Positions 10,751 to 31,916 of a DNA stretch of 32,000 nt are shown here, piece after piece (position 1 is the first letter of the stretch; every line of letters begins with the position of its first letter). Origin of the DNA: Acaryochloris marina S15 (GTDB lineage: Bacteria; Cyanobacteriota; Cyanobacteriia; Thermosynechococcales; Thermosynechococcaceae); the NCBI RefSeq assembly GCF_018336915.1, contig NZ_CP064923.1, positions 270,001 to 302,000 on the forward strand, in the 5' to 3' direction. A model generated the notes under the pieces. That model worked only from the letters and a program-made list of their open reading frames with translations, searched no databases and had not been told where the DNA came from. A program made the position numbers and the translations under genes.

Positions 10751-10793
10751 GCCAGGTTCTATCTATTCCCGGCAACGCTTTGACTTTCTGACA

Positions 10794-12347: not shown

Positions 12348-12446
12348 GCTTACGTCTCTAAAAGTGTAAAATTTGGCTATCAATACTTTGATGCAAATTT
12401 GAGGCTGAGGTTGCTTGGATTGAAGTTGTCGCCTGTAATGCAATCA

Positions 12447-14464: not shown

Positions 14465-14824
14465 ACTGGTTTGGTGGTGAAGATTTAGAAGGTGAGACAC
14501 TTTAGAGCAAGGCTTCTATTCTCAATTCTGTCGACCATTGTCGTCATGACACCACGATCCAAGGCAAATTAGTCACAATAAATGAAGTGCTCTTAAGGGA
14601 CATGCTGGATGAGACTGTTCCCTGGTAGTTGTGGAAAACGGTCATTCAACTATCGGAATAGAGCATAGAGTTGAGGGAATCGCCGATATTCTCAGCGCCT
14701 GTTCGCTGACATCATTCAGCATGGTTGAGTATGAAAGGATGATTGGTCTTCATCTACGCATTCTATCTGCTTGGCCCAGCATGGAGTTCAACACTACAAT
14801 CCACACATTTTAGGTATCAATACA

Positions 14825-17693: not shown

Positions 17694-17818
17694 AACAAAC
17701 TCCTTGCATGTGATTTGCATCCATCCTCACCTCTCTTTTGAATGGCAGCAATAACCTCACAGGTCATTGAATTCATGATGGGTCTTGGTTGAGAATAGAG
17801 GGCAGAGTGGAGAAATGT

Positions 17819-18643
17819 ATGACCTCTCCCAGCACGCTAAACTTTCAACATATTTGCCGCCATTGGCGTAAGTTCAGAAAGCTATCGCAACTGGATTTAG
17901 CTTTGGCGGCTAATGTGTCGCAGCGCCATGTCAGTTGGCTAGAGACTGGGCGTAGTCATCCTAGCCGAGAAATGATTGGGCGTCTCTCTGATGCCATGAA
18001 TATTCCCTTACGGGAAAGGAATATCTTGTTACAAGCTGCTGGCTATGCCGCAGACTATCGTGAAACGCAATTGGATGCGCCCATAATGGCCCCAGTGCTT
18101 GATGCGCTGAATCATATATTGCAACACCATGCCCCGTTGCCTGCCTTCATTGTGGATCGCTACTGGAATGTGAAAAAGGCCAATCAGGCAGCAGAACTAT
18201 TGCTCAATATAGGGGGAAACCCCCAAGCGCTTCAGGAAACAATGGGGACGGATGGGGGACTTAATTTAGCCTTGCTGACCGTTCATCCCGAGGGGCTCAG
18301 GCAATATATTACCAATTGGGCGCAGATCTTACCGTCTATCATCCGTCGTCTTAGGAGTGAATCTCTGGCATCGGGCAATCGAGCCATTCAGGATCAATTC
18401 GCCCAATATATCGAATTAGCTGCCCCAGAAGGTTATAGCGAGCCAGATAGTGACAGTTTGCTGCCTGTTTTGCCCTTAGAACTGAATATTAAGGGTTTAG
18501 AACTGAGTCTATTCTCAATTATTGCCACCTTTGGTACGCCCCAGGACATCACGACGGATGAACTCCGGATTGAAACCTTCTATCCCACTGACACTAAAAC
18601 CGAACAATTCTTTCGGAACTATAATTTTGAGAATTCCGTTTAA
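17819..18643 (+). CDS. XRE-family HTH transcriptional regulator with MmyB-like ligand-binding domain
   Basis: 'WRKFRKLSQLDLALAANVSQRHVSWLETGRSHPSREMIGRLSDAMNIPLRERNILLQAAGYA' matches the conserved N-terminus of MmyB-like regulators. 'PAFIVDRYWNVKKANQAA' and 'FGTPQDITTDELRIETFYPTD' match their PAS-like C-terminal domain. The gene is divergent from the small membrane protein gene. Confidence 0.8.
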   Translation: MTSPSTLNFQHICRHWRKFRKLSQLDLALAANVSQRHVSWLETGRSHPSREMIGRLSDAMNIPLRERNILLQAAGYAADYRETQLDAPIMAPVLDALNHILQHHAPLPAFIVDRYWNVKKANQAAELLLNIGGNPQALQETMGTDGGLNLALLTVHPEGLRQYITNWAQILPSIIRRLRSESLASGNRAIQDQFAQYIELAAPEGYSEPDSDSLLPVLPLELNIKGLELSLFSIIATFGTPQDITTDELRIETFYPTDTKTEQFFRNYNFENSV

Positions 18644-18792: not shown

Positions 18793-19149
18793 CTATTCCC
18801 CAACGATAGTGAGCTTTGCCCACTGTTGATGATCATTGTTTGTAAATAGCTGTAGAGCATCCCCAGCAAAATCTGGATGGGGGGTGCCCAGTTCGTAGAT
18901 GGAATTTTTGGTGGTTACATACACCCGTCCTGCTTTAGTTAGACACCCCTTAATGGGCGAAGATTTCAGCTTTTTTCCAGCAGGATACTTGGAATGGTTA
19001 AATATTTGCCCCTGAATAACCACTTGATCGCCGATGTTAACGCAAAGCCAAGATTCGATAATTGGTAAGCTGAGAGTTGCGGTATTGGATGTAGTTAAAG
19101 TGGGCTGAGAATTCTCTAAATAATAGTCTGTGATGTCATCAGCAATCAT
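18793..19149 (-). CDS. hypothetical protein
   Basis: This ORF has the same orientation as the sulfotransferase/P450/LOX genes and lies downstream of them. I prefer the internal ATG at 19149 (MIADDITDYYL...) over the track start at 19206. I recognise no motif. Confidence 0.4.
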   Translation of the reverse strand: MIADDITDYYLENSQPTLTTSNTATLSLPIIESWLCVNIGDQVVIQGQIFNHSKYPAGKKLKSSPIKGCLTKAGRVYVTTKNSIYELGTPHPDFAGDALQLFTNNDHQQWAKLTIVGE

Positions 19150-19422
19150 GATCAAGCTCGGTAGGAGTGATGCTCGGGGATGAGTGTTGTGATTAAACGA
19201 CAACACAACATTTATGGGGCTAGCTATATCTAGTCTAAGCAGAATGTCTCTCAGAAAGTACAGTAAGAATGCGGAAATCTACGCTAGCTAATATGTTTTG
19301 TTGGAGTAAACTGGCTCGTTAAATATTCGGATCTTTTGCAACAGCCTTGTGGTCAATTTTCTGCCGCTAGAGGTGTTGCTTAACTTGAGCTAGCTATGTT
19401 TGCCTGGATGAGTGCTTTGATA

Positions 19423-20316
19423 TCAATTTTTTGTATCGTACAGGGTCTTCCATTCTGGAAAGGTCATGCCCAGTAAATTGCTAAGCTCTTCAGTTTGCTT
19501 GAGTAGGATGGGCCGGAGGAATTGAGTTGCTTCCTGTAGGTCTTCGGCATCCTTATCTCGATCCACTTCTCGAATCGCTAATTTGAGTCCAGAAGAGCGA
19601 ATCTTTTTTGGGAGTAAAGAGGCTAGCTGGTTAAAAGGCCAGGTATATCTCAAGCGAAATAACGCGCTCTTTTGGTAGAACTGCTTTGGGGTTGCATGAA
19701 ATTTTTCCGTAAGATTAGCAGGGGCAAAAGATGCATCGACACCCAGCCAGTCAAACGTTTTGGTCATACACGCTTCAGCATCATTACAGAGTTGTTCAAA
19801 GGTTAAAAATAAAAATTGATCGGGCGAAAAATACTGGAAGTAATGTTTGAGCTGTTGGGGATAATTACTAACATCTTGATAAAGAGGATTTTTCTGCACT
19901 GCTGTTAGCAAACTTTGATTTTCGTTCCCTTGACGAGTCTCATGCCAATAGTGACTCACCGTGCGTTCAATGGGGTCCCTCATAATATAAATGAAACGGG
20001 CTTCAGGGTTGAACTGGGCTAGTCGTTCAGCAACATCCGTAACATGGGGGTCTTTGGCATAAAGCGTACTGGATTCACCCAAAATGGTTGCATCACCGGC
20101 ATCCTGAAAGAGGCTGAGATATTTCTCTTCATTTTCCCAAAGGCCGAGCTTTTTGATATTGGGCCAGTTCAACTGTTGGGGATGCACAAAGTAGCAAGGC
20201 TCTTTGGGCTCACACATGAAGATAGACGGGTGATTATTGAGATATTGGTGCAAGGATGAGGTGCCAGATTTCATCGCCCCAATAATAAATAGATTCGGTT
20301 TTCTTAAATTGCTCAT
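19423..20316 (-). CDS. PAPS-dependent sulfotransferase
   Basis: 'NLFIIGAMKSGTSSLHQYL' is the 5'-phosphosulfate-binding loop (PKxGTT-like). 'FIYIMRDPIERTVSHYWH' is the 3'-phosphate-binding motif (RxPxxRxxS). At 297 aa the size is typical of a soluble sulfotransferase. Confidence 0.85.
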   Translation of the reverse strand: MSNLRKPNLFIIGAMKSGTSSLHQYLNNHPSIFMCEPKEPCYFVHPQQLNWPNIKKLGLWENEEKYLSLFQDAGDATILGESSTLYAKDPHVTDVAERLAQFNPEARFIYIMRDPIERTVSHYWHETRQGNENQSLLTAVQKNPLYQDVSNYPQQLKHYFQYFSPDQFLFLTFEQLCNDAEACMTKTFDWLGVDASFAPANLTEKFHATPKQFYQKSALFRLRYTWPFNQLASLLPKKIRSSGLKLAIREVDRDKDAEDLQEATQFLRPILLKQTEELSNLLGMTFPEWKTLYDTKN

Positions 20317-20403
20317 AGTATTAATGTGGAGGCCGTCTCAGCTTCACTTCTTTCTAGCGTAGCAGTGGGCTCTAGTCAATCTGCACTGTGAGCAATAGGG
20401 GGT

Positions 20404-21948
20404 TTATGCTCGCAAGACAAATCGCGCTTTTAACTGTCTGGGTACAGAGACCCCAAAGTAAAATTCTTGATCATGGGGCTGATCGCCAAATTGGATCTCT
20501 ACTTTTGCCAGCAGGATGGCTATCGTTAAGCGCATAAAGAACTTGGCAAAATCTTGACCGATGCAAGCCCGATCGCCTCGACCAAATGGAAAAAAGTAAT
20601 CGCTGCCATAGTCATTTTCTGCCAAAGTTTTTGCATCCCAGCGTTCTGGCTTAAAAGATTCTGAATCTTGCCAATGGGGAGAGAGACGCTGAAGAAACCA
20701 GTTGTTGATAAAGATTTGGGTATTGGCGGGGATGTCGTGGCCCGCAAGATGGATGGTGCGAACCGTATTGCGCGTAAAAAAGGGCACGGGGGGCCATAAC
20801 CGTAGAGACTCTCGCAATACTTGCTCCACTGGGACACAGTTTTCCAGTCGTTCCAAGGTGAGGGGTTCACGGAATAACCCTGCCAGATCTTGGTGAAGAG
20901 CAGATAAGGCTTGAGGATGCTGAAACAGCAAATGAAGCGTAGACGTAATACCACTGGGAGCCGACACCGCTCCGCCTGGGTAGACTCCAGCACAGAAGTT
21001 CCGCATTTGTTCAGGGGTAAAGGCAGACCCCCCTCGTTGCAGAACCCAGTCCAGTAGCGATCCACCGGCAGGATTAGCTTGAGTGGTTTCCATCACTTCG
21101 CCAAAGCGTTGAAACCATTGGCGACTCGCTTCTTTGTAATGTTTACCTTTGGGTTCTTCCGGAATCATCCAGCTGGCGATGGACGATCGGTTCATGCGAT
21201 CGGTCCCCGTTGCACAGAGGGTATTGAACTGTTCGAACACCTGATCGGGGAACACTTGGCCGACTGTAGCCAGGGAAAAACCATCGAAGACTAGCTTTTG
21301 AATGGCATCATAAGCCGGGAGCATGTCGGTCTCTGACTGCTGGACCAGTTCCTCCGCCCGACCTTCGATAAAGGCTTGCAAGGGCTGGACTTGAGTCTCC
21401 ATCCACTCGTGGAAGTAAGTCATATTGAAGGGATTATTTTGAACCAGGTGCTGCCATTTCGGTCCAGCATTTTTGGCAACAAAAGGATGACTCTCTGTCA
21501 GAATCGGGCGGAGGGCTTTGCGGGGGATATCTTTATAAAAATCAGCTTGGGTGGCCCGATGTCCATGGGAAGGGTGGCCGGTTTGCTGCTGGGCGGTGAG
21601 CAAGACTTGCTGGATTAAATCAGGGTCGTTGAGAACCAAGGATGGCCGAGCCAAAATCCAGAATAAGGATAAGCCACCATAGTGCTGTCCCTGTTCTCCG
21701 AGCACCTGCCAAATGGGTTTCCCTTGCTGCAGGGCCGAGATATTACCGATGGGAAAAAGCGGTTGAGGACCTGGAATTCTGCCGAACGCTTGGGTTTGTT
21801 TGCGAAAGATCAGCTGAAAAAGCATCTGAAAAAGCATCTGTGAAGAGGACTGTACTTTTGACTCCACCCACTGTCGTGGTTTGGCCTCCATCTGTTTGAG
21901 GGTATTGTGTAGTCCTGTGGTGAGTGATCCGGCTGATCGTCCTGTCAT
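20404..21948 (-). CDS. cytochrome P450 (atypical I-helix)
   Basis: It has the heme-thiolate loop 'FFPFGRGDRACIGQDF' (Cys codon at 20563-20565), ExxR in 'VLRESLRLWPP', 'FKPERW', and an N-terminal 'IPGPQPLFPIGN' proline hinge. The start is uncertain. The track uses a TTG at 21996. The first ATG is at 21948, with GAGGA about 11 nt upstream. Later ATGs at 21891 and 21837 are also possible. Confidence 0.85.
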   Translation of the reverse strand: MTGRSAGSLTTGLHNTLKQMEAKPRQWVESKVQSSSQMLFQMLFQLIFRKQTQAFGRIPGPQPLFPIGNISALQQGKPIWQVLGEQGQHYGGLSLFWILARPSLVLNDPDLIQQVLLTAQQQTGHPSHGHRATQADFYKDIPRKALRPILTESHPFVAKNAGPKWQHLVQNNPFNMTYFHEWMETQVQPLQAFIEGRAEELVQQSETDMLPAYDAIQKLVFDGFSLATVGQVFPDQVFEQFNTLCATGTDRMNRSSIASWMIPEEPKGKHYKEASRQWFQRFGEVMETTQANPAGGSLLDWVLQRGGSAFTPEQMRNFCAGVYPGGAVSAPSGITSTLHLLFQHPQALSALHQDLAGLFREPLTLERLENCVPVEQVLRESLRLWPPVPFFTRNTVRTIHLAGHDIPANTQIFINNWFLQRLSPHWQDSESFKPERWDAKTLAENDYGSDYFFPFGRGDRACIGQDFAKFFMRLTIAILLAKVEIQFGDQPHDQEFYFGVSVPRQLKARFVLRA

Positions 21949-22031
21949 AGCTGTATGTCCTCTGATGCTGAAGTGTGGTGAGTGATACCCTGCCAAGATT
22001 CATGGCATTGGCAAATGAGTTCTAATAAACG

Positions 22032-24038
22032 TTAGATATTGATGCTCTGGGGAATGTTAGAGGGCTGTAGGTAGCGGTAGGGGTAGGGACGATGACGGTT
22101 TCGTTCTGCGATCGCATCTTCGATATCCAATAAGTTGGCTTGAAAACGATGCAGAGGGGCTTGCACCCGCTCATCAGAAAACCAGGATTTTTCGTACTGG
22201 CCGAGTTGTGTATGGTAAATCTGCCCCAGCAAATACGTTAACTCCATCTGATTCAAGGCTTGATGTAAGGGGGGCAGCTGGTCTAGCCGATCCTGGGAAG
22301 ATAGGGCTGTAGCAGTGGGAGCTGGCCGATAGCCTGCTAACGGCATCCCTGGGGTATAGACCATGATGTCGCCCTGGGGAAAATTCACGGCGGCATGTTG
22401 AGCACTGGCCGTAAAAATGATGAGCGTGATGGCTTGAATCAAATAGGCCTGGGTCCGCAATTGTCCCTCCTCGCCAAAGTCTGGAACTCGACCGCCATCT
22501 TCAGCCTGTAGCTCCTTTGCCCAAGCCTGGAGGGCCGCATCCTTTTGTACTGAGTCATCGGTGGGGTAGTACAAGCTCACATAATCAGTGACCCAAGTTT
22601 CGATCGCCTGCCAAATCAGTAATGCATCGTCCCGATAGGGATTAATAGGTAACGCCTCAGCATTATCCAGACCCTGTTGCTGCAATTGTTGGGGCAGCAT
22701 GGCCTGATTAAAGGAATAGCTTTGTAATCCCGTTACCGCTAAGACCCTGGCACAGTCAATGGTGGCGGCTAAGACCGTATCCACCCCGCCTTCTGGGGCC
22801 ATCAACATACTTTGAGCCCCGTTGTTGATACTTAAGGTGCCTTCAAAGTGAGGCCGCAAGAGAATACTCACGGGATGAGTCGGGAGTAGCTGGCGATGGG
22901 TGGCAATCACAAACGGGCTAATAAACAGATGGGTTCGACCCAAATGGGTTACAGCCTCGTGGTAGTTGCTATCTGCAATTTGCACGCAGGTCTTTGCCAT
23001 TTCCCAGGCATGTTGTTGTTTGGTAGCCTCACCCGTGGGTGGCGTCAGAATCGGTGTTTCAGGCCCCGGAGATTGACGGCATTGAATGGCAACGGGCTGG
23101 AGATTGCGGGAGGGCGCATCATCAGGAGGGACTGCAAACAGAGCGATGGGGGCTGAGATATATTTTTGCTGGTCTGGGTAGTTACCATTAATCGCCCCGG
23201 CCAAGATAGCGTAATCGGCGATGTATAAACGCCCTTCGGTAACGGCAGTTTGGAGGGAATCGTCCTCTCCCATCACTGCCTGATAGTGCCCATTCGTGAC
23301 GGGGAAATTAGAGCGAACAGTGTCTCTAGACAAATGGCGCACTTGTTGTAGCAAAACAGGATTAGGACCTGCTACTCGCAGATAAGCAAAGAACTCATCT
23401 TCCTGAAAGTATTGGGCACATTCCGGCAAAGGGATAGTTACAAATTGCTGATTAAAGTCTTCTATAGAGGTGGGGCGATCTTGAGCGCATTCATGGGCAA
23501 GATGTTCTTTTAAGTTCAAGTGCAGAATCCGTAATAGATCATGCTCTAAATTGGAGGCAAGGCTGTGCAGAAAGCTTTCTGAATCAGCAAAAGATAACCG
23601 TAGGCCGTTCAAAAAAGTGGTTGGCACCGTTGTCAGCAGATGCCAGATTAGACGCCACCGCACCTCTGGCCGTTGAGTCAAGATATCCACCAAGGTTTTT
23701 CGAATCAGGCGTGAAGCATGTTGCTCCGCTTCATGCTCATGGTGATGATTGTGGGCTCCCACAATTGCATTAGTAAGGATCTTGAACATGGTGCGGATCA
23801 ACTTTGACCACCAATCTCCGGATGGGAGCTCTTCTTTGGGTAAGCGATCCACCATTGCCACGGGTGCAAGGTGACTGTAGTTGTATTGATATTTTCGCCG
23901 AGCTGCTTTTAGCGCGGTAGGGATAGGCTCAGGCTGTATCGGACGAGCTAGAGCTAAACTTTGTGGATGTTCTTCTTGTTGAATTTCAACAGGTGCGAGT
24001 TGGGTAGGCAGGCCAGTGAGAGAGTACTGATGCGTCAT
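22032..24038 (-). CDS. lipoxygenase (bacterial type, no PLAT domain)
   Basis: 668 aa. 'AWEMAKTCVQIADSNYHEAVTHLGRTHLF' matches the LOX W-x2-AK...H-x4-H-x4-H iron-ligand helix. 'SAQHAAVNFPQ' supplies the H-x3-N ligands. The C-terminus '...NIPQSINI' ends in Ile, the carboxylate iron ligand. The N-terminal 'RRKYQYNYSHLAPVAMVDRLPKEE' is typical of bacterial LOX helical extensions. By hand alignment, 'SINNGAQ' against soybean 'NINALAR' puts Ala at the Coffa-Brash position, which would predict S-stereochemistry. This last point is tentative. Confidence 0.9.
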   Translation of the reverse strand: MTHQYSLTGLPTQLAPVEIQQEEHPQSLALARPIQPEPIPTALKAARRKYQYNYSHLAPVAMVDRLPKEELPSGDWWSKLIRTMFKILTNAIVGAHNHHHEHEAEQHASRLIRKTLVDILTQRPEVRWRLIWHLLTTVPTTFLNGLRLSFADSESFLHSLASNLEHDLLRILHLNLKEHLAHECAQDRPTSIEDFNQQFVTIPLPECAQYFQEDEFFAYLRVAGPNPVLLQQVRHLSRDTVRSNFPVTNGHYQAVMGEDDSLQTAVTEGRLYIADYAILAGAINGNYPDQQKYISAPIALFAVPPDDAPSRNLQPVAIQCRQSPGPETPILTPPTGEATKQQHAWEMAKTCVQIADSNYHEAVTHLGRTHLFISPFVIATHRQLLPTHPVSILLRPHFEGTLSINNGAQSMLMAPEGGVDTVLAATIDCARVLAVTGLQSYSFNQAMLPQQLQQQGLDNAEALPINPYRDDALLIWQAIETWVTDYVSLYYPTDDSVQKDAALQAWAKELQAEDGGRVPDFGEEGQLRTQAYLIQAITLIIFTASAQHAAVNFPQGDIMVYTPGMPLAGYRPAPTATALSSQDRLDQLPPLHQALNQMELTYLLGQIYHTQLGQYEKSWFSDERVQAPLHRFQANLLDIEDAIAERNRHRPYPYRYLQPSNIPQSINI

Positions 24039-24720
24039 TGTTGATCCGGTTTATGGGTGTTCTGACGTAAATGGCAACTGCCTGTGATCAAGGGTGTAGA
24101 GAGAGTTCGTAGCAGCTACCGATTCAGTCCTAGTGTTCCCAAGACGGATTTGGACTTTACTTTTTAAATAGCCTTGAGTTTGGGTAAGCTGGTACTATCT
24201 GGATTGAAAACTATTGAGTATGTAAATGAAAGATTCTGTAGTTAAAACTAGCGTTGATTTAAGTACGGTAAATCGAGGTAGATAATCATTAAGACTGATT
24301 AGCTGAAGGTGAGGCTAATCAGAGCTTCTGACATGTTGTTAACCTTGGTGTTAGGACGTTTTTATTGTTTAATGCTGATATTGATTCGTCAACCTAGAGG
24401 GATGCAAATGAGTAAGCAATAAAAAGCAAAATATCTAGTTTATGGGTATTTATAAGGTTTTTCAGGGTTATGTCGAATCTATTTAAAATAATTCTTGGGC
24501 AGGCTCATACGAATATTGCAGTCACAATTATGCCCAATTGATTTGGAATAAATTAGGAGTAATCCTTGTTTGAGTAATAGTCTTGAGACCATAACAAATA
24601 AATTACTTAGATCTTGCAAGTTTTATGTAAGTTTGGGGAACATCTAGATTGAGGTAATTGCTAGTATTTTTCTTTTTGGAAAAGTTAGTGCTCCTGTTTT
24701 CTGGCTTGGAGAAATAATTG
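24039..24720. promoter_or_regulatory. long AT-rich divergent intergenic region (promoters for the LOX operon and the HstK-type operon)
   Basis: About 680 bp without an ORF of 60 aa or more, and visibly AT-rich. It lies between the minus-strand LOX start (24038) and the plus-strand kinase start (24721; GGAGA about 9 nt upstream). I could not assign -10/-35 elements confidently. Confidence 0.35.
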
Positions 24721-27700
24721 ATGTTGGGGACAATCGCGGACTGTCGTCTGGTTGAGCATCTATATGAGAGTGAGAATTCCATTGTTTATCGGGGTCAACG
24801 ACAGGCTGAGCCGCATCAGGTCATTCTGAAAGTTCTGAAAGAGGATTACCCAACTGCCTCGGAACTGACTCGGTATCGCCAAGAATATGAGATTACCCGC
24901 AGCCTAGAACTTGAAGGGGTGATCAAAGTGCTGGGGTTAGAACCCTATCAACGAACCCTAGCCATTATTTTGGAAGATGTGGAAGGGGTGTCCCTCAAGA
25001 CTTATTACCAGGGAAAGGCCGTTCCGCTGGTTGAGTTTTTACCCCTAGCCATTAGTATTACCGAGGTATTAGGCCGGATCCACAGCCAAAATGTCATCCA
25101 TAAGGATCTGAATCCTAGCAACATCATTTTTAATCCAGATACCCATCAATTACGGATCATCGATTTTGGCATTTCTACTCAGCTGAGCCGAGAAACAACG
25201 ATTCTCAAAAACCCTCGCATCCTCGAAGGAACGCTGCCCTATATCGCTCCTGAACAAACGGGGCGCATGAATCGTTCCTTGGATTATCGGACAGACTTCT
25301 ATGCCTTGGGGGTGATGTTTTATGAGCTGCTAACGGGACAGTTACCCTTTACCGCCAAGGATCCGCTGAAATTAGTCCATTGCCACCTCGCCCAACAGCC
25401 CATCCCTCCCAGTCAAGTCAATTTCGATATTCCTGGGGTGATGTCTGACTTGGTGATGATCTTAATGGCGAAAACCGCCGAGGAACGGTATCAGAGTGCC
25501 TTTGGGATTCAAGCTGATTTGACTGCCTGTTGGCAACAACTCAAGCAAACTGGGGAAATTCGCGCCTTTCCGCTCCGTACCCAGGATCATTCAGATAAGT
25601 TTCATATTCCCCAAAAGCTCTATGGGCGGTCCCAAGAAATTGCAGCCTTATTAACAGCATTTGAGCGGGTCAATCACCCTCAAGATCCGACCAAGAGTAG
25701 TGAAATGATGCTGGTGGCGGGTTACTCCGGAATTGGTAAATCGGCTTTAGTTGCAGAAGTCCATAAGCCGATTACCGAAAAGCAAGGGTACTTTATCTCT
25801 GGGAAGTATGACCAATTTCAGCGAGATGTGCCCTACTCGGCTGTCATCAGTGCGTTTCAAGATTTAGTCAAGCAACTTTTGACTGAAAGTGAAACCCAGC
25901 TAGACCAATGGCGACAAAGATTACTGGCGGCCTTGGGACCTAATGGTCAGGTTATCATTGACGTCATCCCTGAAATTGAGCTGATTACGGGGCCTCAGCC
26001 TCCGGTGCCTGAACTAGGGCCTGCAGAAGCCTTGAATCGGTTCAATCTGGCATTTCAAAATTTTATTCGGGTGTTTTGCACCCCAGCTCACCCCTTGGTG
26101 GTGTTTTTAGATGATTTGCAATGGGCGGATTCCGCCAGCTTGAAGTTGATCAAGCTGATGATGATGGATCGGCAAATGCGATCGCTGCTGTTAATCGGCG
26201 CTTACCGTGACAACGAAGTCGATGCCACCCATCCGTTGATGACCTTGGTGAAGCAGCTTTGGCAAGAAAAAGTCAACATCCATACGATTACTCTCCAGCC
26301 CCTCTCTCAACTGCATCTGTGTCAGCTGATTGCGGATACGGTTCACCATAATTTAGAGACTACCCTGTCCTTGGCAGAGCTGGTCCTGAATAAAACCGAA
26401 GGGAATCCTTTTTTTGTCAATGAATTTCTGAAAAATCTTTATACGGAAGCGCTGTTGCAGTTTAATTCTCGTGCTCAACAGTGGGAATGGGATATCGCCC
26501 AAATTCAGTCTCAAGATCTCACGGATAACGTGATCGAACTACTGATTAGTAAGCTGAAAAAATTACCCTCTGCTACCCAAGATGCCCTGCGGCTGGCTGC
26601 TTGTGTGGGAGCTGAATTTGATCTGCATACCCTCAGCTTGATTCGTCAGCAATCCCACACGGAGGTGTTTGCAGATTTGAAAGTCGCGATTCAGCTCGGG
26701 TTGATCTTTCCCCAGTCTGAGCTGAATGATGCATTAGTGATTACAGATTTTCGCTTTGGTCATGACCGGATTCAACAAGCCGCTTATGCCCTAATCGATC
26801 CTGACAGGCGCTCTACGGTGCACTTGAGCATTGGCCGGTTGCTGTGGCATAACGTGGAACCGGATCAACTGGCAGAGCGTATTTTTGAGGTGGTGGATCA
26901 TCTCAATCAGGCGCTCCCCCTGATTACGGATCTAGAAGAACAAGATCAGGTCGCCCAACTTAACCTCAAAGCCGGCCAGAAAGCGAAATCAGCTACGGCT
27001 TATAGTGCTGCTGTGCGGTATCTACAAACAGGATTGAGTTTGGTGGGGGAGACGGGATGGCAAAAAGCCTATCCCCTAACTCTTTGGCTTCACCAAGAAG
27101 CAGTTGAAGCTGCTTATCTCCACCAAGATTATCCCCAGCAAGAACAGCTGACAACCGTGGTGCAGCAGCAGGCCAGAACCGTGTTGGATATGGTGAAAGT
27201 CTACCGGGTCAAAATTTTGGCTCGCTCTGCTCAGAATCGTCATCTAGAAGCAACGGATATTGGCTTTGAGATTTTGGAGCGCCTGGGAATCACGTTTGTA
27301 GACCCCACCCTCGAGAATTTACAGCAGGAATTGGATCAAACCAAGCAGCTCTGTGCGGATCGCTCGATTCAAGATTTGATCCGGTTGTCTCCTATGGCGG
27401 CTGAGGATAAACTCGCCGCGATGCAGATCCTCTCGGATATTTTGTCCTCTGGGTATCAAGCTTCTTTTGAACGCTTTATTCTCAGTAATCTGAAGCAAAT
27501 TCACTTATCCCTTACCTATGGCAATACGGCTCCCTCCGCGTTTGCTTACGATTGTTATGGCATTACCCTCTGTGGGGTGGTGGGAGATATTGAAGCAGGC
27601 TACCAGTTTGGACGGTTAGCCCTAGCGGTGGTCGATCAGTTTCAGGCGAAAAAGACCAAGAGTCGGGTGGTCTTTGTGTTCAATGCGTTTGTGCGCCACT

Positions 27701-30234
27701 GGACTGACCCCCTGAATTTGACGATTCCTGATTTGCATGAAGGGTATCAGATTGGGTTAGAAACCGGGGATTTAGAATATGCCAGCTATTCCCTTTGTTG
27801 GGAGGCGATGCATTCTTTGCTGACGGGGGAGAAACTGCCAGATTTAGCATTGCGCATGCTGGAGTTTCAGCAAGCCATTGCTGGGTTTCAACAGGCGGCT
27901 TGCCTGCTCTATTTGCAAATTTTTCAACAGGTGACGTCCCACTTAACGGAGCCCAACTTGGATCCGACCTGCTTATCCGGGACTTACCTGCAAGAACGAC
28001 AGGTCATTGTGGACAGTGCGGATAATAAGTTAGCTCTGGCTTTCTTTTATACCCTCAAAGCTCAGGTGGCTTACCTGTTGGGACAGCCGGCGACGGCCTT
28101 AGAGAGTACCCAAAAAGCGGTTGATTATGTGGATGGCATGACGGCTGCGGCGACGGTGGCGAGCCTCAATTTTTACGATTCTCTTGCTCGCCTGGCCCTT
28201 TACGAGGCTCTGCCTCCTGTTGAGCAAGAGCAGATGCTAGCAAGGGTGGCGACCAATCAAGACCAGCTGCAGAAATGGGCTGTCCATGCCCCGGCCAACC
28301 ACCAGCATAAATATTGTCTGGTAGAAGCGGAGCGTTTTCGGGTATTGAGACAACTTCAACAGGCGGGGGAGGCCTATGATCGGGCGATTGCCCTGGCCCA
28401 GTCTCATCATTATCCGAATGAAGCAGCCTTAGCTAATGAGCTGGCGGCGAAGTGTTTTCTGCAGCAAGAACGGGATAATTTTGCCCGGGTGTATCTGAAT
28501 GAAGCCTATTACGGGTACTACTGTTGGGGGGCAACGGCTAAATTACGACAACTGGAAGCGTCCTATCCTTATCTGCTGGCCCAGCAAGTGATCCATTCCC
28601 AACAGGGCACCATCCCGACTACCCCCTTGGTGGCAGCAGCAGCGACGAGTACTATTCGCACTGGTCAAGCGCTGGATCTCTCCACGGTCTTGCAGGCATC
28701 ACAAGCGATTGCGGGGGAAATTGTCCTCGATAAGCTGTTGATGACCCTGATCAAAATTCTGGTCCGCAATGCGGGTGCCCAAGTGGGTCATTTAATCCTG
28801 AATGTGGAAGGTCGGCTAGTGATTGAGGCATCTTTTAACTCCCAGTCTGGCCAGAGCCAGGTGTTGCAGTCTCAATCGTTTGCTGGACAGCTTCCCGACA
28901 GTATCGTCAACTACGTGCTCCGTACTCAGGAGAGTGTTGTTCTTCAGCAGGCTACCCAAGACAGTAACTTTGGTCTGGACGCTTATATCACGACCCATCA
29001 GCCGAAATCGATTCTCTGTGCTCCGCTGATGAATCAAGGACAATTGAGCGGGATTCTCTATTTAGAAAACAACCTGACGACGGGGGCCTTTACGGCAGAC
29101 CGTTTAGAGATTTTGCAGCTGCTGTCGGGACAGGCTGCGATCGCAATCGACAATGCGCGCCTTTATACCAACCTGGAAGAGAAAGTCGATGAACGGACCC
29201 AGGAACTCTCCCAAGCTCTAGAAGACCTGCAGTTGGCCCAAGACGGCCTGATTCAGTCAGAAAAAATGGCGGCCTTGGGCCAACTGATTGCTGGGGTCGC
29301 CCATGAAATTAATACTCCCTTGGGTGCGATTCGATCTTCGATTGAATATATTGCCAATTTCCTCGATCAGCATCTGACGACCCTGCCACAATTTTTTCGG
29401 GAGTTAACCCCCCAGCAGGCAGAGCAGTTTAAATCGTTACTCCTGCGTGCCTTAACCCCTTCACCGACCTTGTCAGGTCGCGAACGACGCCATACCCGCA
29501 AGGCTTTGGCCAAGCAACTATCTGAACAAGGGATTGCCTCGGCAGAGTCCCTGGCCAGTTTATTGCTGGATCTAGGGATTTGTGATGGCATCCATGACCT
29601 CCTTCCCCTTCTATCTGAACCCGAGAGCGAACCCTTATTAAAGATGGTGCGCCAGTTTACGCGGGTGCGAGAAAGTACGCGGGATATTTCTACCGCGAGC
29701 GATCGTTCTGCCAAAATTGTGTTTGCCCTGAAAACCTATGCTCGCTACGACCATAGCGGTGAAAAGATTGAAGCCAATATCACGGACGGCATCGAGGCCG
29801 TATTAACCCTGTATCACAACCAAATCAAACATGGGGTGACGGTTCATCGCTCCTTCGCCGAACTCCCCCCTATCGCCTGCTATTTTGATGAACTTAATCA
29901 GGTGTGGACCAACCTGCTACACAATGCTCTGCAGGCCATGGACCATCAAGGCACCCTTGACATTGATGTCAGCCAACAGGCGGATCAAGTCTGCGTCAAG
30001 ATTACCGACAACGGTCCTGGCGTTCCCCCTGAGCTGCAAGGCAAAATTTTTGAGCCCTTTTTCACCACCAAACCCCCCGGTGAAGGCAGTGGTTTAGGTC
30101 TTGACATTGTCCACAAAATAATTGACAAGCATCAGGGTACCCTAAGCTTGGACTCCGTTCCTGGCCGTACAACCTTTAGTGTGACCTTGCCCATATCTGT
30201 CATTCCAACCCCTCAACCGACTCCTGCCCTATGA
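24721..30234 (+). CDS. multidomain sensor: Ser/Thr-kinase-like domain, AAA_16/STAND ATPase, helical-repeat region, GAF, histidine kinase (HstK-type)
   Basis: Kinase-like domain: 'VILKVLK', 'HKDLNPSNIIF', 'IIDFGIS', 'LPYIAPEQ'. P-loop ATPase: Walker A 'GYSGIGKSAL' (about 25720-25746), Walker B 'VVFLDDLQWAD'. Next comes a helical region of about 650 aa. The GAF domain ends 'AAIAIDNARLY'. A coiled coil precedes the H-box 'AALGQLIAGVAHEINTPLGAI' (His codon 29302-29304). The N-box is 'NLLHNALQA', G1 is 'ITDNGPGVP' and G2 is 'GEGSGLGLDIV'. No TM segments were seen. Confidence 0.9.
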   Translation: MLGTIADCRLVEHLYESENSIVYRGQRQAEPHQVILKVLKEDYPTASELTRYRQEYEITRSLELEGVIKVLGLEPYQRTLAIILEDVEGVSLKTYYQGKAVPLVEFLPLAISITEVLGRIHSQNVIHKDLNPSNIIFNPDTHQLRIIDFGISTQLSRETTILKNPRILEGTLPYIAPEQTGRMNRSLDYRTDFYALGVMFYELLTGQLPFTAKDPLKLVHCHLAQQPIPPSQVNFDIPGVMSDLVMILMAKTAEERYQSAFGIQADLTACWQQLKQTGEIRAFPLRTQDHSDKFHIPQKLYGRSQEIAALLTAFERVNHPQDPTKSSEMMLVAGYSGIGKSALVAEVHKPITEKQGYFISGKYDQFQRDVPYSAVISAFQDLVKQLLTESETQLDQWRQRLLAALGPNGQVIIDVIPEIELITGPQPPVPELGPAEALNRFNLAFQNFIRVFCTPAHPLVVFLDDLQWADSASLKLIKLMMMDRQMRSLLLIGAYRDNEVDATHPLMTLVKQLWQEKVNIHTITLQPLSQLHLCQLIADTVHHNLETTLSLAELVLNKTEGNPFFVNEFLKNLYTEALLQFNSRAQQWEWDIAQIQSQDLTDNVIELLISKLKKLPSATQDALRLAACVGAEFDLHTLSLIRQQSHTEVFADLKVAIQLGLIFPQSELNDALVITDFRFGHDRIQQAAYALIDPDRRSTVHLSIGRLLWHNVEPDQLAERIFEVVDHLNQALPLITDLEEQDQVAQLNLKAGQKAKSATAYSAAVRYLQTGLSLVGETGWQKAYPLTLWLHQEAVEAAYLHQDYPQQEQLTTVVQQQARTVLDMVKVYRVKILARSAQNRHLEATDIGFEILERLGITFVDPTLENLQQELDQTKQLCADRSIQDLIRLSPMAAEDKLAAMQILSDILSSGYQASFERFILSNLKQIHLSLTYGNTAPSAFAYDCYGITLCGVVGDIEAGYQFGRLALAVVDQFQAKKTKSRVVFVFNAFVRHWTDPLNLTIPDLHEGYQIGLETGDLEYASYSLCWEAMHSLLTGEKLPDLALRMLEFQQAIAGFQQAACLLYLQIFQQVTSHLTEPNLDPTCLSGTYLQERQVIVDSADNKLALAFFYTLKAQVAYLLGQPATALESTQKAVDYVDGMTAAATVASLNFYDSLARLALYEALPPVEQEQMLARVATNQDQLQKWAVHAPANHQHKYCLVEAERFRVLRQLQQAGEAYDRAIALAQSHHYPNEAALANELAAKCFLQQERDNFARVYLNEAYYGYYCWGATAKLRQLEASYPYLLAQQVIHSQQGTIPTTPLVAAAATSTIRTGQALDLSTVLQASQAIAGEIVLDKLLMTLIKILVRNAGAQVGHLILNVEGRLVIEASFNSQSGQSQVLQSQSFAGQLPDSIVNYVLRTQESVVLQQATQDSNFGLDAYITTHQPKSILCAPLMNQGQLSGILYLENNLTTGAFTADRLEILQLLSGQAAIAIDNARLYTNLEEKVDERTQELSQALEDLQLAQDGLIQSEKMAALGQLIAGVAHEINTPLGAIRSSIEYIANFLDQHLTTLPQFFRELTPQQAEQFKSLLLRALTPSPTLSGRERRHTRKALAKQLSEQGIASAESLASLLLDLGICDGIHDLLPLLSEPESEPLLKMVRQFTRVRESTRDISTASDRSAKIVFALKTYARYDHSGEKIEANITDGIEAVLTLYHNQIKHGVTVHRSFAELPPIACYFDELNQVWTNLLHNALQAMDHQGTLDIDVSQQADQVCVKITDNGPGVPPELQGKIFEPFFTTKPPGEGSGLGLDIVHKIIDKHQGTLSLDSVPGRTTFSVTLPISVIPTPQPTPAL

Positions 30235-30626
30235 CAAAACTGGCCATTCTTTGTGTTGATGACGAAGTCATTATTCTCAATAGCCTCCTGCGACAGCTGC
30301 AAACTGCGTTTGACGATAACTACATCTATGAAACTGCCGAAAATGCTAGCGAAGCCTTGGAGCTGATTGAAGAACTGCAGGAAGAAAATACAGATCTGTT
30401 AGTGATCGTGTCTGATTGGTTAATGCCTGGAGCTAAAGGAGATGAATTTCTGATTCAAGTCCATCAGAAGTTCCCCGGGGTGGTCAAGATTTTGCTGACC
30501 GGTCAAGCCGATGAAGCGGCGGTAGAAAGAGCACAATCCCAGGCCAATCTGTTTAACTGTTTACGTAAACCTTGGAGTGAGAGTGATCTCATTCAATGTA
30601 TTCAATCAGCCTTAGGGACGGTGTAA
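30231..30626 (+). CDS. single-domain response regulator (CheY-like receiver)
   Basis: Its ATG overlaps the upstream stop (ATGA at 30231-30234). All receiver signature residues are present: 'CVDDE', 'VIVSDWLMPGAKG' (phospho-acceptor Asp), 'ILLTGQAD' and 'LRKPW'. Confidence 0.9.
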   Translation: MTKLAILCVDDEVIILNSLLRQLQTAFDDNYIYETAENASEALELIEELQEENTDLLVIVSDWLMPGAKGDEFLIQVHQKFPGVVKILLTGQADEAAVERAQSQANLFNCLRKPWSESDLIQCIQSALGTV

Positions 30627-30641
30627 AGACTAATCAGGACG

Positions 30642-31916
30642 ATGCCTAAACCCGTAATTGTTTGTGTAGATGATGAAGTCGCAGTATTAGATAGCCTCCG
30701 GCGTGAGCTATCTGAAGTCTTTGAAGATAGCTGCGAAATAGAAACCGCTATGGGGGGCAAGGATGCCATTGCCCTGGTGCATGACCTGATCGAGGATGAA
30801 TGCGATTTATCGGTGATCATTGCCGATTATCTGATGCCGGATATCAAAGGGGATGAGGTTTTACAACAAGTCCATCAGCTCTCCCCCCAAACCTTAAAAA
30901 TCATGTTGACGGGGCAGGCTAATGTGGATGGCATTTCTAATGCGATTAATACCGCCCAGCTATATCACTATATTGCCAAGCCCTGGCAACCCGAAAATTT
31001 ACAGTTAACGGTGCGAGAAGCCCTCAATAGCTACCAGCTCGCTAAAAAAATTAAAGACTATCAGCAAACTCTAGAACGCAAAGTTGAAGAGCGCACTCAG
31101 GAATTATCCGCAATTCTGCATACCCTCCAAACCACCCAAGCCGAACTGATTCAGGCGGAAAAAATGGCTGCCCTAGGCCAGTTAGTGGCTGGTGTGGCCC
31201 ATGAAATTAACACGCCAGTGGGAAATGCCCTATTAGCTGCCTCTGTTCTGAACAACGAGACCGGTTCCTTAACACAAGCCTTCGACCAGGGGGGGCTAAA
31301 ACGGTCTGCTTTGGTCAGCTATTTACAGACAGCCCAAGAGAGTAGTGGTCTGATCTTGCAAAATCTCCATGGGGCGGCGGCCCTCATTCAAAACTTCAAG
31401 CAAGTTGCAGTCGATCAAACCAGTCATGAACAACGAGAGTTTCAGATCATCCCGTATATTGAGAGTGTATTGACTAATTTGGAGCCGAAATTAAAACAGA
31501 CTCGCCATAGGGTGACGGTCTCAGGGGATGCTGCTCTAAAAACTACTAGTTATCCAGGAGCACTGTCGCAAGTGGCGACCAATTTTGTCATGAATTCCCT
31601 TTTGCATGCCTACCAACCTGGAGAGGCAGGGCAATTAAAATTTAATGTGACTCAACAACAGAATCAGATCATTCTGGAATATACCGATGATGGTTGCGGC
31701 ATTCCTGCAGAAGATCAGCCTAAGATTTTTGAGCCATTCTTTACAACGGGACGAGATCGCGGGGGAAGTGGCTTAGGTTTACATATTGTTCATAATCTAG
31801 TCACCCAAACCCTAGGAGGAACCGTATCTTGTCAGAGTGAGGTTGCCGTGGGAACCCAGTTTAAGCTGCAGTTACCCTTGACCTTAGCAAAAGGGGGGTC
31901 TCATGCCCGAGGATAA
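30642..31916 (+). CDS. hybrid protein: N-terminal receiver plus histidine kinase
   Basis: Receiver: 'CVDDE', 'VIIADYLMPDIKG', 'IMLTGQAN', 'IAKPW'. Then a coiled coil, 'LERKVEERTQELSAILHTLQTTQAELIQAEKMAALGQLVAGVAHEINTPVGNA' (H-box His codon 31200-31202), and an HATPase_c domain ('MNSLLHAYQ', 'YTDDGCGIP', 'GGSGLGLHIVHNLV'). Confidence 0.9.
   Translation: MPKPVIVCVDDEVAVLDSLRRELSEVFEDSCEIETAMGGKDAIALVHDLIEDECDLSVIIADYLMPDIKGDEVLQQVHQLSPQTLKIMLTGQANVDGISNAINTAQLYHYIAKPWQPENLQLTVREALNSYQLAKKIKDYQQTLERKVEERTQELSAILHTLQTTQAELIQAEKMAALGQLVAGVAHEINTPVGNALLAASVLNNETGSLTQAFDQGGLKRSALVSYLQTAQESSGLILQNLHGAAALIQNFKQVAVDQTSHEQREFQIIPYIESVLTNLEPKLKQTRHRVTVSGDAALKTTSYPGALSQVATNFVMNSLLHAYQPGEAGQLKFNVTQQQNQIILEYTDDGCGIPAEDQPKIFEPFFTTGRDRGGSGLGLHIVHNLVTQTLGGTVSCQSEVAVGTQFKLQLPLTLAKGGSHARG

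Follow-up and report, generated by a model that had tools for sequence, protein, structure and literature searches.

The window, meaning the whole 32,000-nucleotide stretch of Acaryochloris marina DNA that was analysed, carries three head-to-tail minus-strand genes for a lipoxygenase (LOX), a cytochrome P450 and a PAPS-type sulfotransferase (ST), with an operon headed by a giant sensor kinase on the opposite strand (Table 1). The three-gene arrangement had been put forward in the original prediction and was confirmed by the open reading frame (ORF) listing of the window, by Pfam searches and by exact matches to the consecutive A. marina chromosome proteins QUY42979, QUY42978 and QUY42977; the ST ortholog ABW28552 is numbered one accession below the P450. 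The spacing of 87 bp that had been given for P450 and ST was measured at 87 nt. The P450 had been said to open at or before 21996, and the maximal ORF (20404-21996, 530 aa) does begin there, with a TTG. The start is most likely the ATG at 21948, however, because that is where the closest homologs have their N-termini and the resulting 514 aa are exactly those of QUY42978.1, and the gap between LOX and P450 is therefore 83 nt.

Table 1. Features of the A. marina locus, with positions in the window.
Feature	Position	Strand	Remarks
MmyB-like HTH transcription regulator	17789..18643	+	PF17765 ligand-binding domain; convergent with the ST end
ORF137 (unannotated)	18793..19206	-	137 aa; 216 nt downstream of ST; GC 0.437
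PAPS-type sulfotransferase (ST)	19423..20316	-	297 aa; QUY42977.1; ortholog of ABW28552
Cytochrome P450	20404..21948	-	514 aa (most likely start); QUY42978.1; ortholog of AM1_3563
Lipoxygenase (LOX)	22032..24038	-	668 aa; QUY42979.1; ortholog of AM1_3564
AT-rich divergent intergenic region	24039..24717		679 nt; 35.6% GC; between LOX and the giant kinase gene
HstK-type giant sensor kinase	24718..30234	+	1838 aa; divergent from LOX
Single-domain response regulator	30231..30626	+	Overlaps the kinase stop codon; same order in A. thomasi
Hybrid response-regulator/histidine kinase	30642..31916	+	424 aa; third gene of the kinase operon

Consensus scans, which are weak evidence, found no minus-strand terminator-like site between LOX, P450 and ST. 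The only minus-strand promoter-like site that they picked up (24392-24364) precedes LOX and falls inside the AT-rich intergenic region. LOX and P450 may be co-transcribed. At the far end of the cluster, the MmyB-like regulator is also found in strain MBIC11017, and its linkage to the cluster is doubtful because TetR/SnoaL genes replace it in another strain.

The lipoxygenase was recognised by Pfam (Lipoxygenase, PF00305, E 4e-67, residues 195-652), and its matches in the PDB are bacterial 15-LOXs with E values from 7e-117 to 1e-101. All the canonical iron ligands that had been claimed for it are present: the predicted ligands form a complete pattern, H360-x4-H365, H548-x3-N552 and the C-terminal Ile668, in register with those of solved bacterial LOXs such as 8x8f. 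A Pfam search found no N-terminal PLAT/beta-barrel domain of the eukaryotic type, a domain that is dispensable in bacterial LOXs, and in the alignment to P. aeruginosa LoxA (4g32, query residues 50-668) the ~190 N-terminal residues fall on the helical extension of that enzyme. The Coffa site is occupied by Ala, and S-stereochemistry is therefore predicted.

LOX and P450 form a gene pair that is conserved across many bacterial phyla. The neighbourhood sample comprised 78 loci on one-genome-per-species contigs, 70 of them with a member of the P450 family described below and 8 with a generic P450. A LOX lies within 10 kb of the P450 in about 50 of the 70 family loci, as against none of the 8 generic ones, and 46 of the 50 pairs have both genes on the same strand in the order LOX then P450, with alignment-end gaps that are mostly between -22 and +57 nt. 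The pairs are spread over Cyanobacteria, Planctomycetota (including Kuenenia), Acidobacteriota, Spirochaetota/Leptospirales, a Rickettsiales-labelled MAG and some 40 Myxococcota, with two tandem LOX-P450 pairs at one Leptospirales locus (L014). Natural fusions of the two also exist, namely a P450-PLAT-LOX protein of 1200 aa (P0391) and a P450-LOX protein of 935 aa found on 4 contigs (P0427). Pairwise identities of LOX and P450 co-vary (r=0.97, or r=0.88 without close relatives), which is partly expected because the two share the species phylogeny. A LOX is not an obligatory neighbour, since about 20 family loci have none within 10 kb (Schlesneria, Zavarzinella/Gemmata, Verrucomicrobiota and three marine cyanobacterial MAGs).

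The surroundings of the family P450s were also recorded. The order in M. xanthus is a LOX, a second LOX and, after 21 nt, the P450 (ABF88335, 478 aa, 1437 nt), which overlaps a fatty-acid desaturase gene by 4 nt, and at 11 myxobacterial loci a desaturase comes after the P450. Lipid-related neighbours elsewhere are a FadL/TodX transporter (L010) and a phospholipase-B-like protein (L034), and CMAS and steroid-reductase genes are found at L088. A RoxA-like dihaem dioxygenase-type cytochrome adjoins the P450 in three loci that lack LOX (L009, L011 and L012), and the Kuenenia loci, alone among those with LOX-P450, encode a catalase-domain protein ahead of LOX.

By its sequence, the window P450 (Pfam p450, PF00067, E 2e-43) belongs to a small, distinct, LOX-linked family. 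Homologs have E values down to 1e-134 in cyanobacteria and from 1e-86 to 1e-55 in other phyla, followed directly by generic P450s at about 1e-20, and E<1e-30 was reached by 97 of 29,248 P450 matches among 1.84 billion representative proteins. An N-terminal helix leads into a PGPxPxFPxGN hinge, and the canonical motifs follow, with the heme loop read earlier from the sequence (FGRGDRACIG), ExxR (ESLR) and PERW; the FPFGRGxRxCxG loop is uninterrupted and conserved throughout the family. It is the I-helix that deviates. The acid-alcohol pair of this helix (A/G-G-x-D/E-T-T/S) serves O2 activation in P450s, whereas the window P450 has GGAVSA in place of the AGHETT of other P450s, the acid being lost and the Thr changed to Ser. 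In a HMMER alignment to CYP97A3, GGAVSA sits opposite AGHETS. The pattern G-G-x-(V/I/F/M/Y)-S was found in 53 of 53 family P450s and A-G-H-E/D-T-T in 66 of 66 outgroup P450s, and both the representative set as a whole and the P0391 fusion keep the GGx(hydrophobic)S signature. Ferredoxin-like small ORFs were looked for with a crude motif scan, and none turned up within 2.5 kb of a family P450. Taken with that result, the loss of the motif fits a P450 that would use the LOX hydroperoxide directly, the missing acid being suggestive of such use rather than diagnostic.

These features have to be weighed against a conventional role, in which the P450 would be an O2- and NAD(P)H-dependent monooxygenase, served by a ferredoxin and a reductase encoded elsewhere in the genome, that hydroxylates or epoxidises fatty acids or LOX-derived hydroxy fatty acids to di- and tri-oxygenated products. 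The canonical FPFGRGxRxC loop, ExxR and PERW would suit such an enzyme, as would the invariant Ser at the Thr position. The best PDB sequence matches are CYP97A3, CYP46A1 and CYP3A, and an AF2 model (pLDDT 86, TM 0.8 to P450 structures) has CYP97, the fatty-acid hydroxylase P450 BM3 and CYP3A4 as its nearest folds; CYP97, BM3, CYP3A4 and CYP46A1 are true monooxygenases. Unlinked redox partners are common among bacterial P450s, and the family does occur without LOX at the 20 or so loci noted above. A monooxygenase is nonetheless unlikely: the I-helix acid has gone from every family member examined and is kept in every outgroup P450, the crude scan placed no ferredoxin-like ORF next to any member, and both the tight LOX-to-P450 operon structure and the P450-LOX fusions resemble known hydroperoxide-channelling pairs.

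A slightly better than even case can be made, from sequence and gene context, that the locus is an accessory oxylipin module of A. marina with LOX then P450 as its core, in which the P450 would convert the LOX hydroperoxide; the two enzymes probably make modified fatty-acid peroxide products together. A cytosolic, PA-LOX-like iron LOX, predicted to be S-specific, would first turn a polyunsaturated fatty acid into a hydroperoxide, with C18 linoleate or alpha-linolenate as the most likely substrate in A. marina. The P450 would then take this hydroperoxide both as its substrate and as its own oxygen source, with no call for O2, NAD(P)H or a redox partner, and would cleave the O-O bond on ferric heme so that the hydroperoxide is rearranged or dehydrated. 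The product may be of the epoxy-alcohol, allene-oxide, cleavage or diol type, a choice that is not predictable from sequence. The earlier idea of a LOX feeding a dedicated P450 thereby gains strong support from the cross-phylum adjacency, the Rosetta-stone fusions and the loss of the O2-activation motif, and the view that the arrangement is uncharacterised held up, as no description of the LOX-P450 pair was found in the literature.

The ST has Pfam matches to Sulfotransfer_3 (PF13469, E 1e-22) and Sulfotransfer_1 (PF00685, E 5e-15) and carries both PAPS motifs, the 5'-phosphosulfate loop K16-S-G-T-S and the 3'-phosphate motif R113DPIERTVS121. PAPS sulfotransferases do act on lipid-derived hydroxyls, with the Arabidopsis hydroxyjasmonate sulfotransferase (an oxylipin) and the CurM/olefin-synthase ST domains (beta-hydroxyacyl) as examples, and the window ST resembles these two in having the PAPS-binding motifs. 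Unlike the CurM ST, which it matches at E 3e-4 only, it is closest among solved structures to a bacterial stand-alone ST (3rnl, E 7e-23) and then to heparan-sulfate 3-O-sulfotransferases, and its relatives are found in glycan clusters: the closest homologs outside Acaryochloris (58-64% identity) lie in glycosyltransferase/ABC-transporter/methyltransferase clusters with a second ST. In 5 A. marina-clade genomes the LOX-P450-ST trio carries consecutive accessions, and it recurs at a further locu​s (L079) with a different downstream flank. The LOX-P450 pairs of A. thomasi (L085), Acaryochloris bin.148 (L086) and the Acaryochloridaceae MAG RU_4_10 (L004) have no ST after them, and none was seen at any other locus surveyed outside the A. 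marina clade. The ST is a recent add-on to LOX-P450 that is found in the A. marina clade only. ORF137 travels with it in MBIC11017, and a 118-aa gene, equivalent by position only, takes the place of ORF137 at L079.

There is about an even chance that the ST works outside the oxylipin pathway, as a recent insertion together with ORF137, and sulfates a glycan, a glycolipid or some other acceptor. Its restriction to one clade points in that direction, as do its GC content (0.433, with 0.437 for ORF137, against 0.506 for LOX and 0.507 for P450), the company of glycosyltransferases, ABC exporters and a second ST around its homologs, the mainly heparan-sulfate 3-O-sulfotransferase character of its solved relatives, and a very large and broad family (1439 matches). 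It lies, on the other hand, on the same strand as the P450 and just past it with no terminator-like site between, it has been kept with LOX-P450 in at least six A. marina-clade genomes, among them the one with the different flank, and no glycosyltransferase genes occur in the window regions examined. With context evidence this mixed, an oxylipin as acceptor is weakly supported and the role of the ST is uncertain. Within the proposed module, the ST, which joined the LOX-P450 unit at its end in the A. marina lineage alone, may transfer sulfate to a hydroxyl group of the product, and this is the least secure step. Of the full route first envisaged, from LOX through a dedicated P450 to a sulfated oxylipin, the LOX-P450 link is strongly supported, and the sulfated-product extension is weakly supported in view of the clade restriction, the GC contrast (0.43 versus 0.51) and the glycosyltransferase/ABC-transporter setting of the relatives. 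The expected recurrence in related genomes was likewise seen for LOX-P450 and, beyond the A. marina clade, not for the ST.

Conserved signalling genes, which did not figure in the original prediction, adjoin the cluster. The giant kinase combines Pkinase (residues 20-257), AAA_16 (300-493), GAF (1337-1477), HisKA (1520-1564) and HATPase (1724-1826) domains, and with a Ser/Thr kinase, a GAF domain and HisKA/HATPase in one polypeptide it is of the HstK type. A. thomasi also has the hybrid response-regulator/histidine kinase, followed there by a GGDEF response regulator. A role in phage defence or abortive infection, with LOX peroxidising membrane lipids under the control of the STAND-like kinase, is disfavoured and very improbable; the AAA_16/STAND-like NTPase-kinase does match PADLOC kinase defence families such as PD-T4-6 at the domain level, but these matches are confined to the generic kinase domain, LOX, P450 and ST have none, and the surrounding genes have housekeeping or lipid functions and do not form defence islands.

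The giant kinase is better seen as a candidate regulator or sensor of the LOX-P450 module, and together with its response regulators it would probably regulate the module or sense its product. The recurrence of a giant Ser/Thr-His kinase beside this P450 family hints at signalling. In the LOX-less cyanobacterial MAGs L003, L005 and L006, the gene immediately upstream of the P450 encodes a full-length ortholog (59-62% identity). Relatives with 34-39% identity adjoin one of the two core genes in Leptospirales (L014, L030) and Cystobacter (L061), and the direct neighbour of the P450 in Schlesneria, Gemmataceae, Kuenenia and L087 is an STK-AAA_16-TPR protein. Such a kinase is present within 10 kb at 21 of the 70 loci, a raw count with no genome-wide background rate beside it. 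The whole kinase-RR-RR/HK operon, divergent from LOX, is kept in A. thomasi, a chemoreceptor lies between LOX and P450 at L013, and one family P450 is fused to two cNMP-binding domains. A complete signalling device, with a LOX-P450 lipid messenger that is sensed by the kinase and response regulators or made under their control, would extend the proposed oxylipin module rather than replace it. It is a tentative proposition of fairly low probability, as kinases of this kind abound in cyanobacteria, planctomycetes and myxobacteria, and most myxobacterial loci have none nearby.

Among known systems, the M. xanthus LOX-LOX-P450-desaturase locus is, we infer, the characterised LOX locus MXAN_1744/MXAN_1745, whose products are 11- and 12-LOX of a hepoxilin/trioxilin route (An et al. 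2018, PMC5760719). That study assayed the P450s MXAN_0683 (1404 nt) and MXAN_2304 (1377 nt), for neither of which activity was found, and ascribed epoxy-alcohol formation to the LOXs themselves; these P450s differ from the LOX-adjacent one of 1437 nt.

In the plant and algal LOX-CYP74 systems (allene oxide synthase, AOS; hydroperoxide lyase, HPL; divinyl ether synthase, DES; epoxyalcohol synthase, EAS), as is proposed here, the hydroperoxide made by LOX goes to a dedicated P450 without the usual machinery for O2 activation. The CYP74 heme-binding loop carries a nine-residue insertion, and its Cys loop is non-canonical (PMC10813956). Assignment of the window P450 to CYP74 was rejected on its canonical loop, which has no such insertion, and on its nearest structures (CYP97, BM3 and CYP3A4), and no CYP74 entry was present among its best 60 sequence matches or best 50 fold matches. 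It differs from CYP74 further in the Ser retained at the Thr site and in being encoded in a bacterial operon, and the two families have only the P450 fold in common.

Catalase-related allene oxide synthase-LOX fusions, as outlined in work from the Brash laboratory, come from corals (Plexaura) and cyanobacteria (Acaryochloris marina, Anabaena). They share with the present proposal the coupling of LOX to a heme enzyme for its hydroperoxide, and even the species A. marina, but the partner in the window is a P450 and not a catalase fold, and the genes are separate; a Pfam search of the window LOX and of the genes around it found no catalase domain. With the window LOX-P450, A. marina has a second LOX system, distinct from that fusion. 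P450s that isomerise the peroxide of a partner dioxygenase with no redox partner are represented by the fungal Ppo/linoleate diol synthases, thromboxane synthase CYP5A1 and prostacyclin synthase CYP8A1, and the I-helix deviates in the fungal dioxygenase-P450 fusions and in both synthases, as it does in the window P450. Those enzymes work with a dioxygenase of the heme peroxidase/cyclooxygenase type instead of a LOX, and no specific sequence relationship of the window P450 to them was detected. If the P450 does handle hydroperoxides, this hitherto uncharacterised family would represent an independent, convergent solution.

Three co-directional minus-strand genes for a lipoxygenase (LOX), a cytochrome P450 and a PAPS-type sulfotransferase, claimed by the original prediction, were confirmed by ORF listing and Pfam searches, and their products are exact matches to consecutive A. 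marina chromosome proteins. The predicted LOX stop (22032), P450 stop (20404), sulfotransferase start (20316) and 87-nt gap between the latter two genes all held, while the opening of the P450, placed at or before 21996, is better set at the ATG at 21948, since the closest homologs start at the matching position and the product from there is identical to QUY42978.1. The gap between LOX and P450 is then 83 nt. The canonical iron ligands expected of the LOX (H-x4-H, H-x3-N and the C-terminal Ile) were seen, in register with solved bacterial LOXs, as was the canonical P450 heme loop (FGRGDRACIG), accompanied by ExxR and PERW; both PAPS motifs were found in the sulfotransferase. Consensus scans, which are weak evidence, gave one promoter-like site upstream of LOX and nothing resembling a terminator on the coding strand in the two gaps of the trio. 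No NCBIfam model was matched by the LOX or the sulfotransferase, and the P450 had partial matches far below threshold (ApyO, pentalenene oxygenase); the name "pentalenene oxygenase" on its A. thomasi homolog was rejected as an automatic label. No catalase-type partner lies within the window. Positions 1-13000 hold unrelated housekeeping and phosphate-scavenging genes (SpoIID-like, SRPBCC/polyketide-cyclase-like, PhoX, methyltransferase, RecA, PhoD), and short-chain dehydrogenase (SDR) and 3beta-HSD/epimerase-like genes lie a few kb past the sulfotransferase. Related SDRs recur near the module at loci L014, L018 and L064 of other genomes, which may be chance, as SDRs are common.

Features of the window and of loci from other genomes (L handles)
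Feature	Location	Position	Strand	Details
LOX	window	22032-24038	-	668 aa; Pfam Lipoxygenase E 4e-67; QUY42979
P450	window	20404-21948 (maximal ORF 20404-21996)	-	514 aa; Pfam p450 E 2e-43; QUY42978.1
Sulfotransferase	window	19423-20316	-	297 aa; Sulfotransfer_3 E 1e-22, Sulfotransfer_1 E 5e-15; QUY42977
ORF137, unannotated	window	18793-19206	-	137 aa; low GC like the sulfotransferase, with which it travels
MmyB-like regulator	window	17789-18643	+	next to ORF137
Giant kinase and two following genes	window	24718-31916	+	divergent from LOX
SDR and 3beta-HSD/epimerase-like genes	window	14771-16815
Related SDR	L014; L018	3686-4462; 6874-7755
Two tandem P450-LOX pairs	L014	9971-16584
Fatty-acid desaturase after P450	L089; L043	10434-11279; 11428-12273
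SAM methyltransferase adjoining LOX	L007; L013	2289-2948; 4467-5543
Methyl-accepting chemotaxis protein	L013	8333-9979		between LOX and P450
RoxA-like dihaem cytochrome c	L009; L011	11397-13067; 11520-13175		convergent with P450
Protein with C-terminal catalase domain	L022	650-3160		836 aa
Protein overlapping P450 start	L039; L058; L067	9108-9989; 8956-9999; 9070-10008		~300 aa

The comparison of gene neighbourhoods that had been proposed as a check on the LOX-P450 linkage shows that the linkage recurs. A scan with the family alignment, taking one genome per species, gave 78 loci, made up of 70 members of the small P450 family around the window protein and eight generic P450s. Since the ORF caller mis-extends genes in high-GC myxobacterial DNA (antisense cluster "c3", "c4"), tblastn alignment coordinates and called contig genes were relied upon. 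Of the 70 family loci, tblastn places a LOX next to the P450 in about 50 and none nearby in some 20; none of the eight controls has one. In 46 of the 50 pairs the LOX immediately precedes the P450, both on one strand, and the gaps between alignment ends are mostly -22 to +57 nt. Hosts of the pair include Acaryochloris and other cyanobacteria, Gemmataceae, a Zavarzinella sp., Planctomycetaceae, Kuenenia, an acidobacterium, Leptospirales, a spirochaete, a Rickettsiales-labelled MAG and around 40 Myxococcota. The pairwise identities of LOX and P450 co-vary (r 0.97, and 0.88 without close relatives), which fits inheritance as a unit, with shared species phylogeny contributing too. The order P450 then LOX occurs in the Leptospirales locus L014, where two tandem pairs come right after a 1793-aa relative of the window's giant kinase, in the spirochaete L019, and in fusion proteins: P0391 is a P450-PLAT-LOX of 1200 aa, and P0427 a P450-LOX of 935 aa found on four contigs, beside another LOX. 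LOX and P450 are very probably functionally coupled.

By its sequence relationships, the P450 defines a small, distinct family. Its homologs at 44-91% identity are cyanobacterial without exception, those of other phyla form a second tier at 30-37%, and below this, after an abrupt drop in score, come generic Streptomyces P450s (E about 1e-20). An exhaustive phmmer search of 1.84 billion representatives returned 29,248 P450s at E<1e-3 and just 97 at E<1e-30. The solved structures nearest in sequence are CYP97A3, CYP46A1 and CYP3A; those nearest by fold (AF2 model, pLDDT 86) are CYP97, the fatty-acid hydroxylase P450 BM3 and CYP3A4. The CYP74 hallmark is a nine-residue insertion in the heme loop (PMC10813956). 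Because this insertion is absent from the canonical loop of the window P450, and no CYP74 entry is among its best sequence or fold matches, membership of CYP74 was ruled out.

In the I-helix, G-G-x-(V/I/F/M/Y)-S is found in 53/53 family members, as against A-G-H-E/D-T-T in 66/66 outgroup P450s; GGAVSA sits opposite AGHETS of CYP97A3 in the HMMER alignment. The signature is kept in the P450-PLAT-LOX fusion as well as throughout the set of representatives. The acid-alcohol pair supplies protons for O2 activation, and P450s that do not activate O2 (CYP74, CYP5A1, CYP8A1, CYP152, P450nor) typically diverge at this site. A crude Cys-motif scan for ferredoxin-like ORFs within 2.5 kb of every family P450, blind to flavodoxins and distal partners, gave only out-of-frame junk in high-GC DNA. 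A conventional monooxygenase would be compatible with the canonical heme loop, with the invariant Ser of the I-helix motif and with the LOX-less loci; the loss of the motif, the negative ferredoxin scan, the operon and the fusions make a cofactor-free transformation of hydroperoxides the best supported mechanism, and one that we hold with moderate confidence. LOX would produce a fatty-acid hydroperoxide, and the P450 would cleave its O-O bond on ferric heme and rearrange or dehydrate it with no need of cofactors.

The sulfotransferase has a different history. The original prediction would have all three gene families co-located in relatives; this stands for LOX and P450 in several phyla, while the sulfotransferase is confined to the A. 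marina clade. The trio has consecutive accessions in MBIC11017 (where the P450 is AM1_3563 and the LOX AM1_3564), CCMEE 5410, "Moss Beach", NIES-2412 and the window strain, and is also present in a further strain with a different downstream flank. In A. thomasi the place after LOX-P450 is taken by a Uma2 gene, and in Acaryochloris bin.148 and Acaryochloridaceae RU_4_10 too it holds no sulfotransferase; no homologs were found at other loci by tblastn (E<1e-5, 78 loci). The GC content is 0.433 for the sulfotransferase and 0.437 for ORF137, compared with 0.506 for LOX and 0.507 for P450 (GC3 0.44 versus 0.51), a compositional step that fits later acquisition of the sulfotransferase segment. The sulfotransferase family is very large (1439 matches), and its closest non-Acaryochloris members (58-64% identity) lie among glycosyltransferases, ABC exporters, methyltransferases and a second sulfotransferase. 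The solved relatives are one bacterial sulfotransferase, then heparan-sulfate 3-O-sulfotransferases, with the CurM sulfotransferase at just E 3e-4. The gene is a lineage-specific addition. Sulfation of the LOX/P450 product, the last step of the pathway first proposed, is possible given the shared strand, the short gap and retention within A. marina, but its support is limited to position and retention and the evidence against it (absence from relatives, the GC step, homologs in glycan clusters) is broader, so that we regard this role as doubtful. The MmyB-like regulator beyond ORF137 belongs to a family reported to bind fatty-acid-like ligands; another A. marina strain has TetR/SnoaL genes in its place.

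Elsewhere, the neighbours of the family are consistently lipid-related. In M. xanthus, where the locus was reached through an exact copy of the DK1622 P450, gene calls give a minus-strand LOX and a plus-strand PLAT-LOX, then, after 21 nt, the P450, which overlaps a fatty-acid desaturase gene by 4 nt. We infer that this LOX pair is the characterised MXAN_1744/1745 lipoxygenases, in whose study two other P450s of different length were assayed and not the LOX-adjacent one (PMC5760719). A desaturase follows the LOX-adjacent P450 in 11-12 myxobacterial loci (Myxococcus, Corallococcus, Pyxidicoccus), and in some of these a TonB-dependent receptor comes next. Other loci have a FadL/TodX transporter or a phospholipase-B-like protein, and L088 has cyclopropane-fatty-acid synthase (CMAS) and steroid-reductase-like genes. 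SAM methyltransferases adjoin LOX at two unrelated loci (L007, L013) and, like the CMAS, may be alternative tailoring enzymes to the A. marina sulfotransferase. In LOX-less Zavarzinella/Gemmata loci (L009, L011, L012) the convergent RoxA-like cytochrome may be an alternative oxygenase partner of the P450; its family includes a rubber-cleaving dioxygenase. The catalase-domain protein of Kuenenia (L022, L024) precedes LOX-P450, after which come a FAD-monooxygenase-like gene and a Ser/Thr kinase (STK)-AAA_16 protein, and these loci may hold both kinds of heme partner together. In three Verrucomicrobiota loci (L039, L058, L067) the gene standing in place of LOX overlaps the P450 start, and its product matches no Pfam family.

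Signalling genes are also frequent neighbours. Opposite LOX, the window carries an 1838-aa STK-AAA_16-GAF-HisKA-HATPase protein, then a response regulator and a hybrid response regulator-histidine kinase; in A. thomasi exactly the same kinase operon lies opposite LOX-P450 and is followed by a GGDEF regulator. Three LOX-less cyanobacterial MAGs (L003, L005, L006) have a full-length ortholog (59-62% identity) immediately before the P450, full-length relatives (34-39%) flank the module in Leptospirales (L014), L030 and Cystobacter (L061), and in Schlesneria, Gemmataceae, Kuenenia and the metagenomic locus L087 the P450 has an STK-AAA_16-TPR protein as its direct neighbour; L020 and L068 are among the loci with an ortholog or relative next to the P450. 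An STK-AAA_16-type gene occurs within 10 kb at 21/70 loci, a raw count, and the adjacency stays a lead. In the acidobacterial locus L013 a chemotaxis protein gene lies within the module, and the metagenomic protein P0407 (1239 aa) is a family P450 fused to two cyclic-nucleotide-binding domains. As a lead, these neighbours suggest a tie between the module's product and signal transduction. A widespread bacterial oxylipin signalling circuit, in which the giant kinase and response regulators sense the LOX-P450 product (sulfated in A. marina) or gate its synthesis, is a speculative and rather improbable extension. If true, it would be a prokaryotic counterpart of jasmonate/eicosanoid signalling, built on a P450 family with CYP74-independent hydroperoxide chemistry. 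A defence-system reading was rejected, as PADLOC gave generic kinase-domain matches alone and none for LOX, P450 or sulfotransferase.

LOXs are rare in bacteria, and little has been established about what they do physiologically or about the chemistry that follows them. A conserved, sometimes fused LOX-P450 operon would supply the bacterial "second enzyme" of the LOX cascade, a P450 family lacking the O2-activation motif and of separate origin from plant CYP74 and the coral/cyanobacterial catalase-type partners. AM1_3563/3564 and the P450 beside the LOX gene pair of genetically tractable M. xanthus are clonable targets; the pair could account for the synthesis of hepoxilin-like lipids in myxobacteria or change the present view of it, bacterial lipid-mediator signalling becomes directly testable through the recurrent kinase neighbours, and the P450s are candidate cofactor-free biocatalysts for converting PUFA hydroperoxides. 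AM1_3563 was once a candidate chlorophyll d synthase and was discarded as lying outside the A. marina core genome (PMC8949462), its only appearance in the searched literature; lipid chemistry is more likely given the LOX context.

The claim that the arrangement is uncharacterised was borne out by a full-text literature search, in which no described bacterial LOX-P450 pair was found (the Brash-laboratory A. marina papers PMC2787963 and PMC2755933 lay outside it), and a 2026 review of bacterial LOXs does not mention operons, gene clusters or P450 partners. The module is alike in function to plant LOX-CYP74, to the coral/cyanobacterial catalase-AOS-LOX fusions and to the fungal dioxygenase-P450 fusions, but lacks the defining features of the CYP74 and catalase types. 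We classify it as a known kind of system, a LOX whose hydroperoxide is transformed by a heme partner, in which the new element is the partner, a new P450 family.
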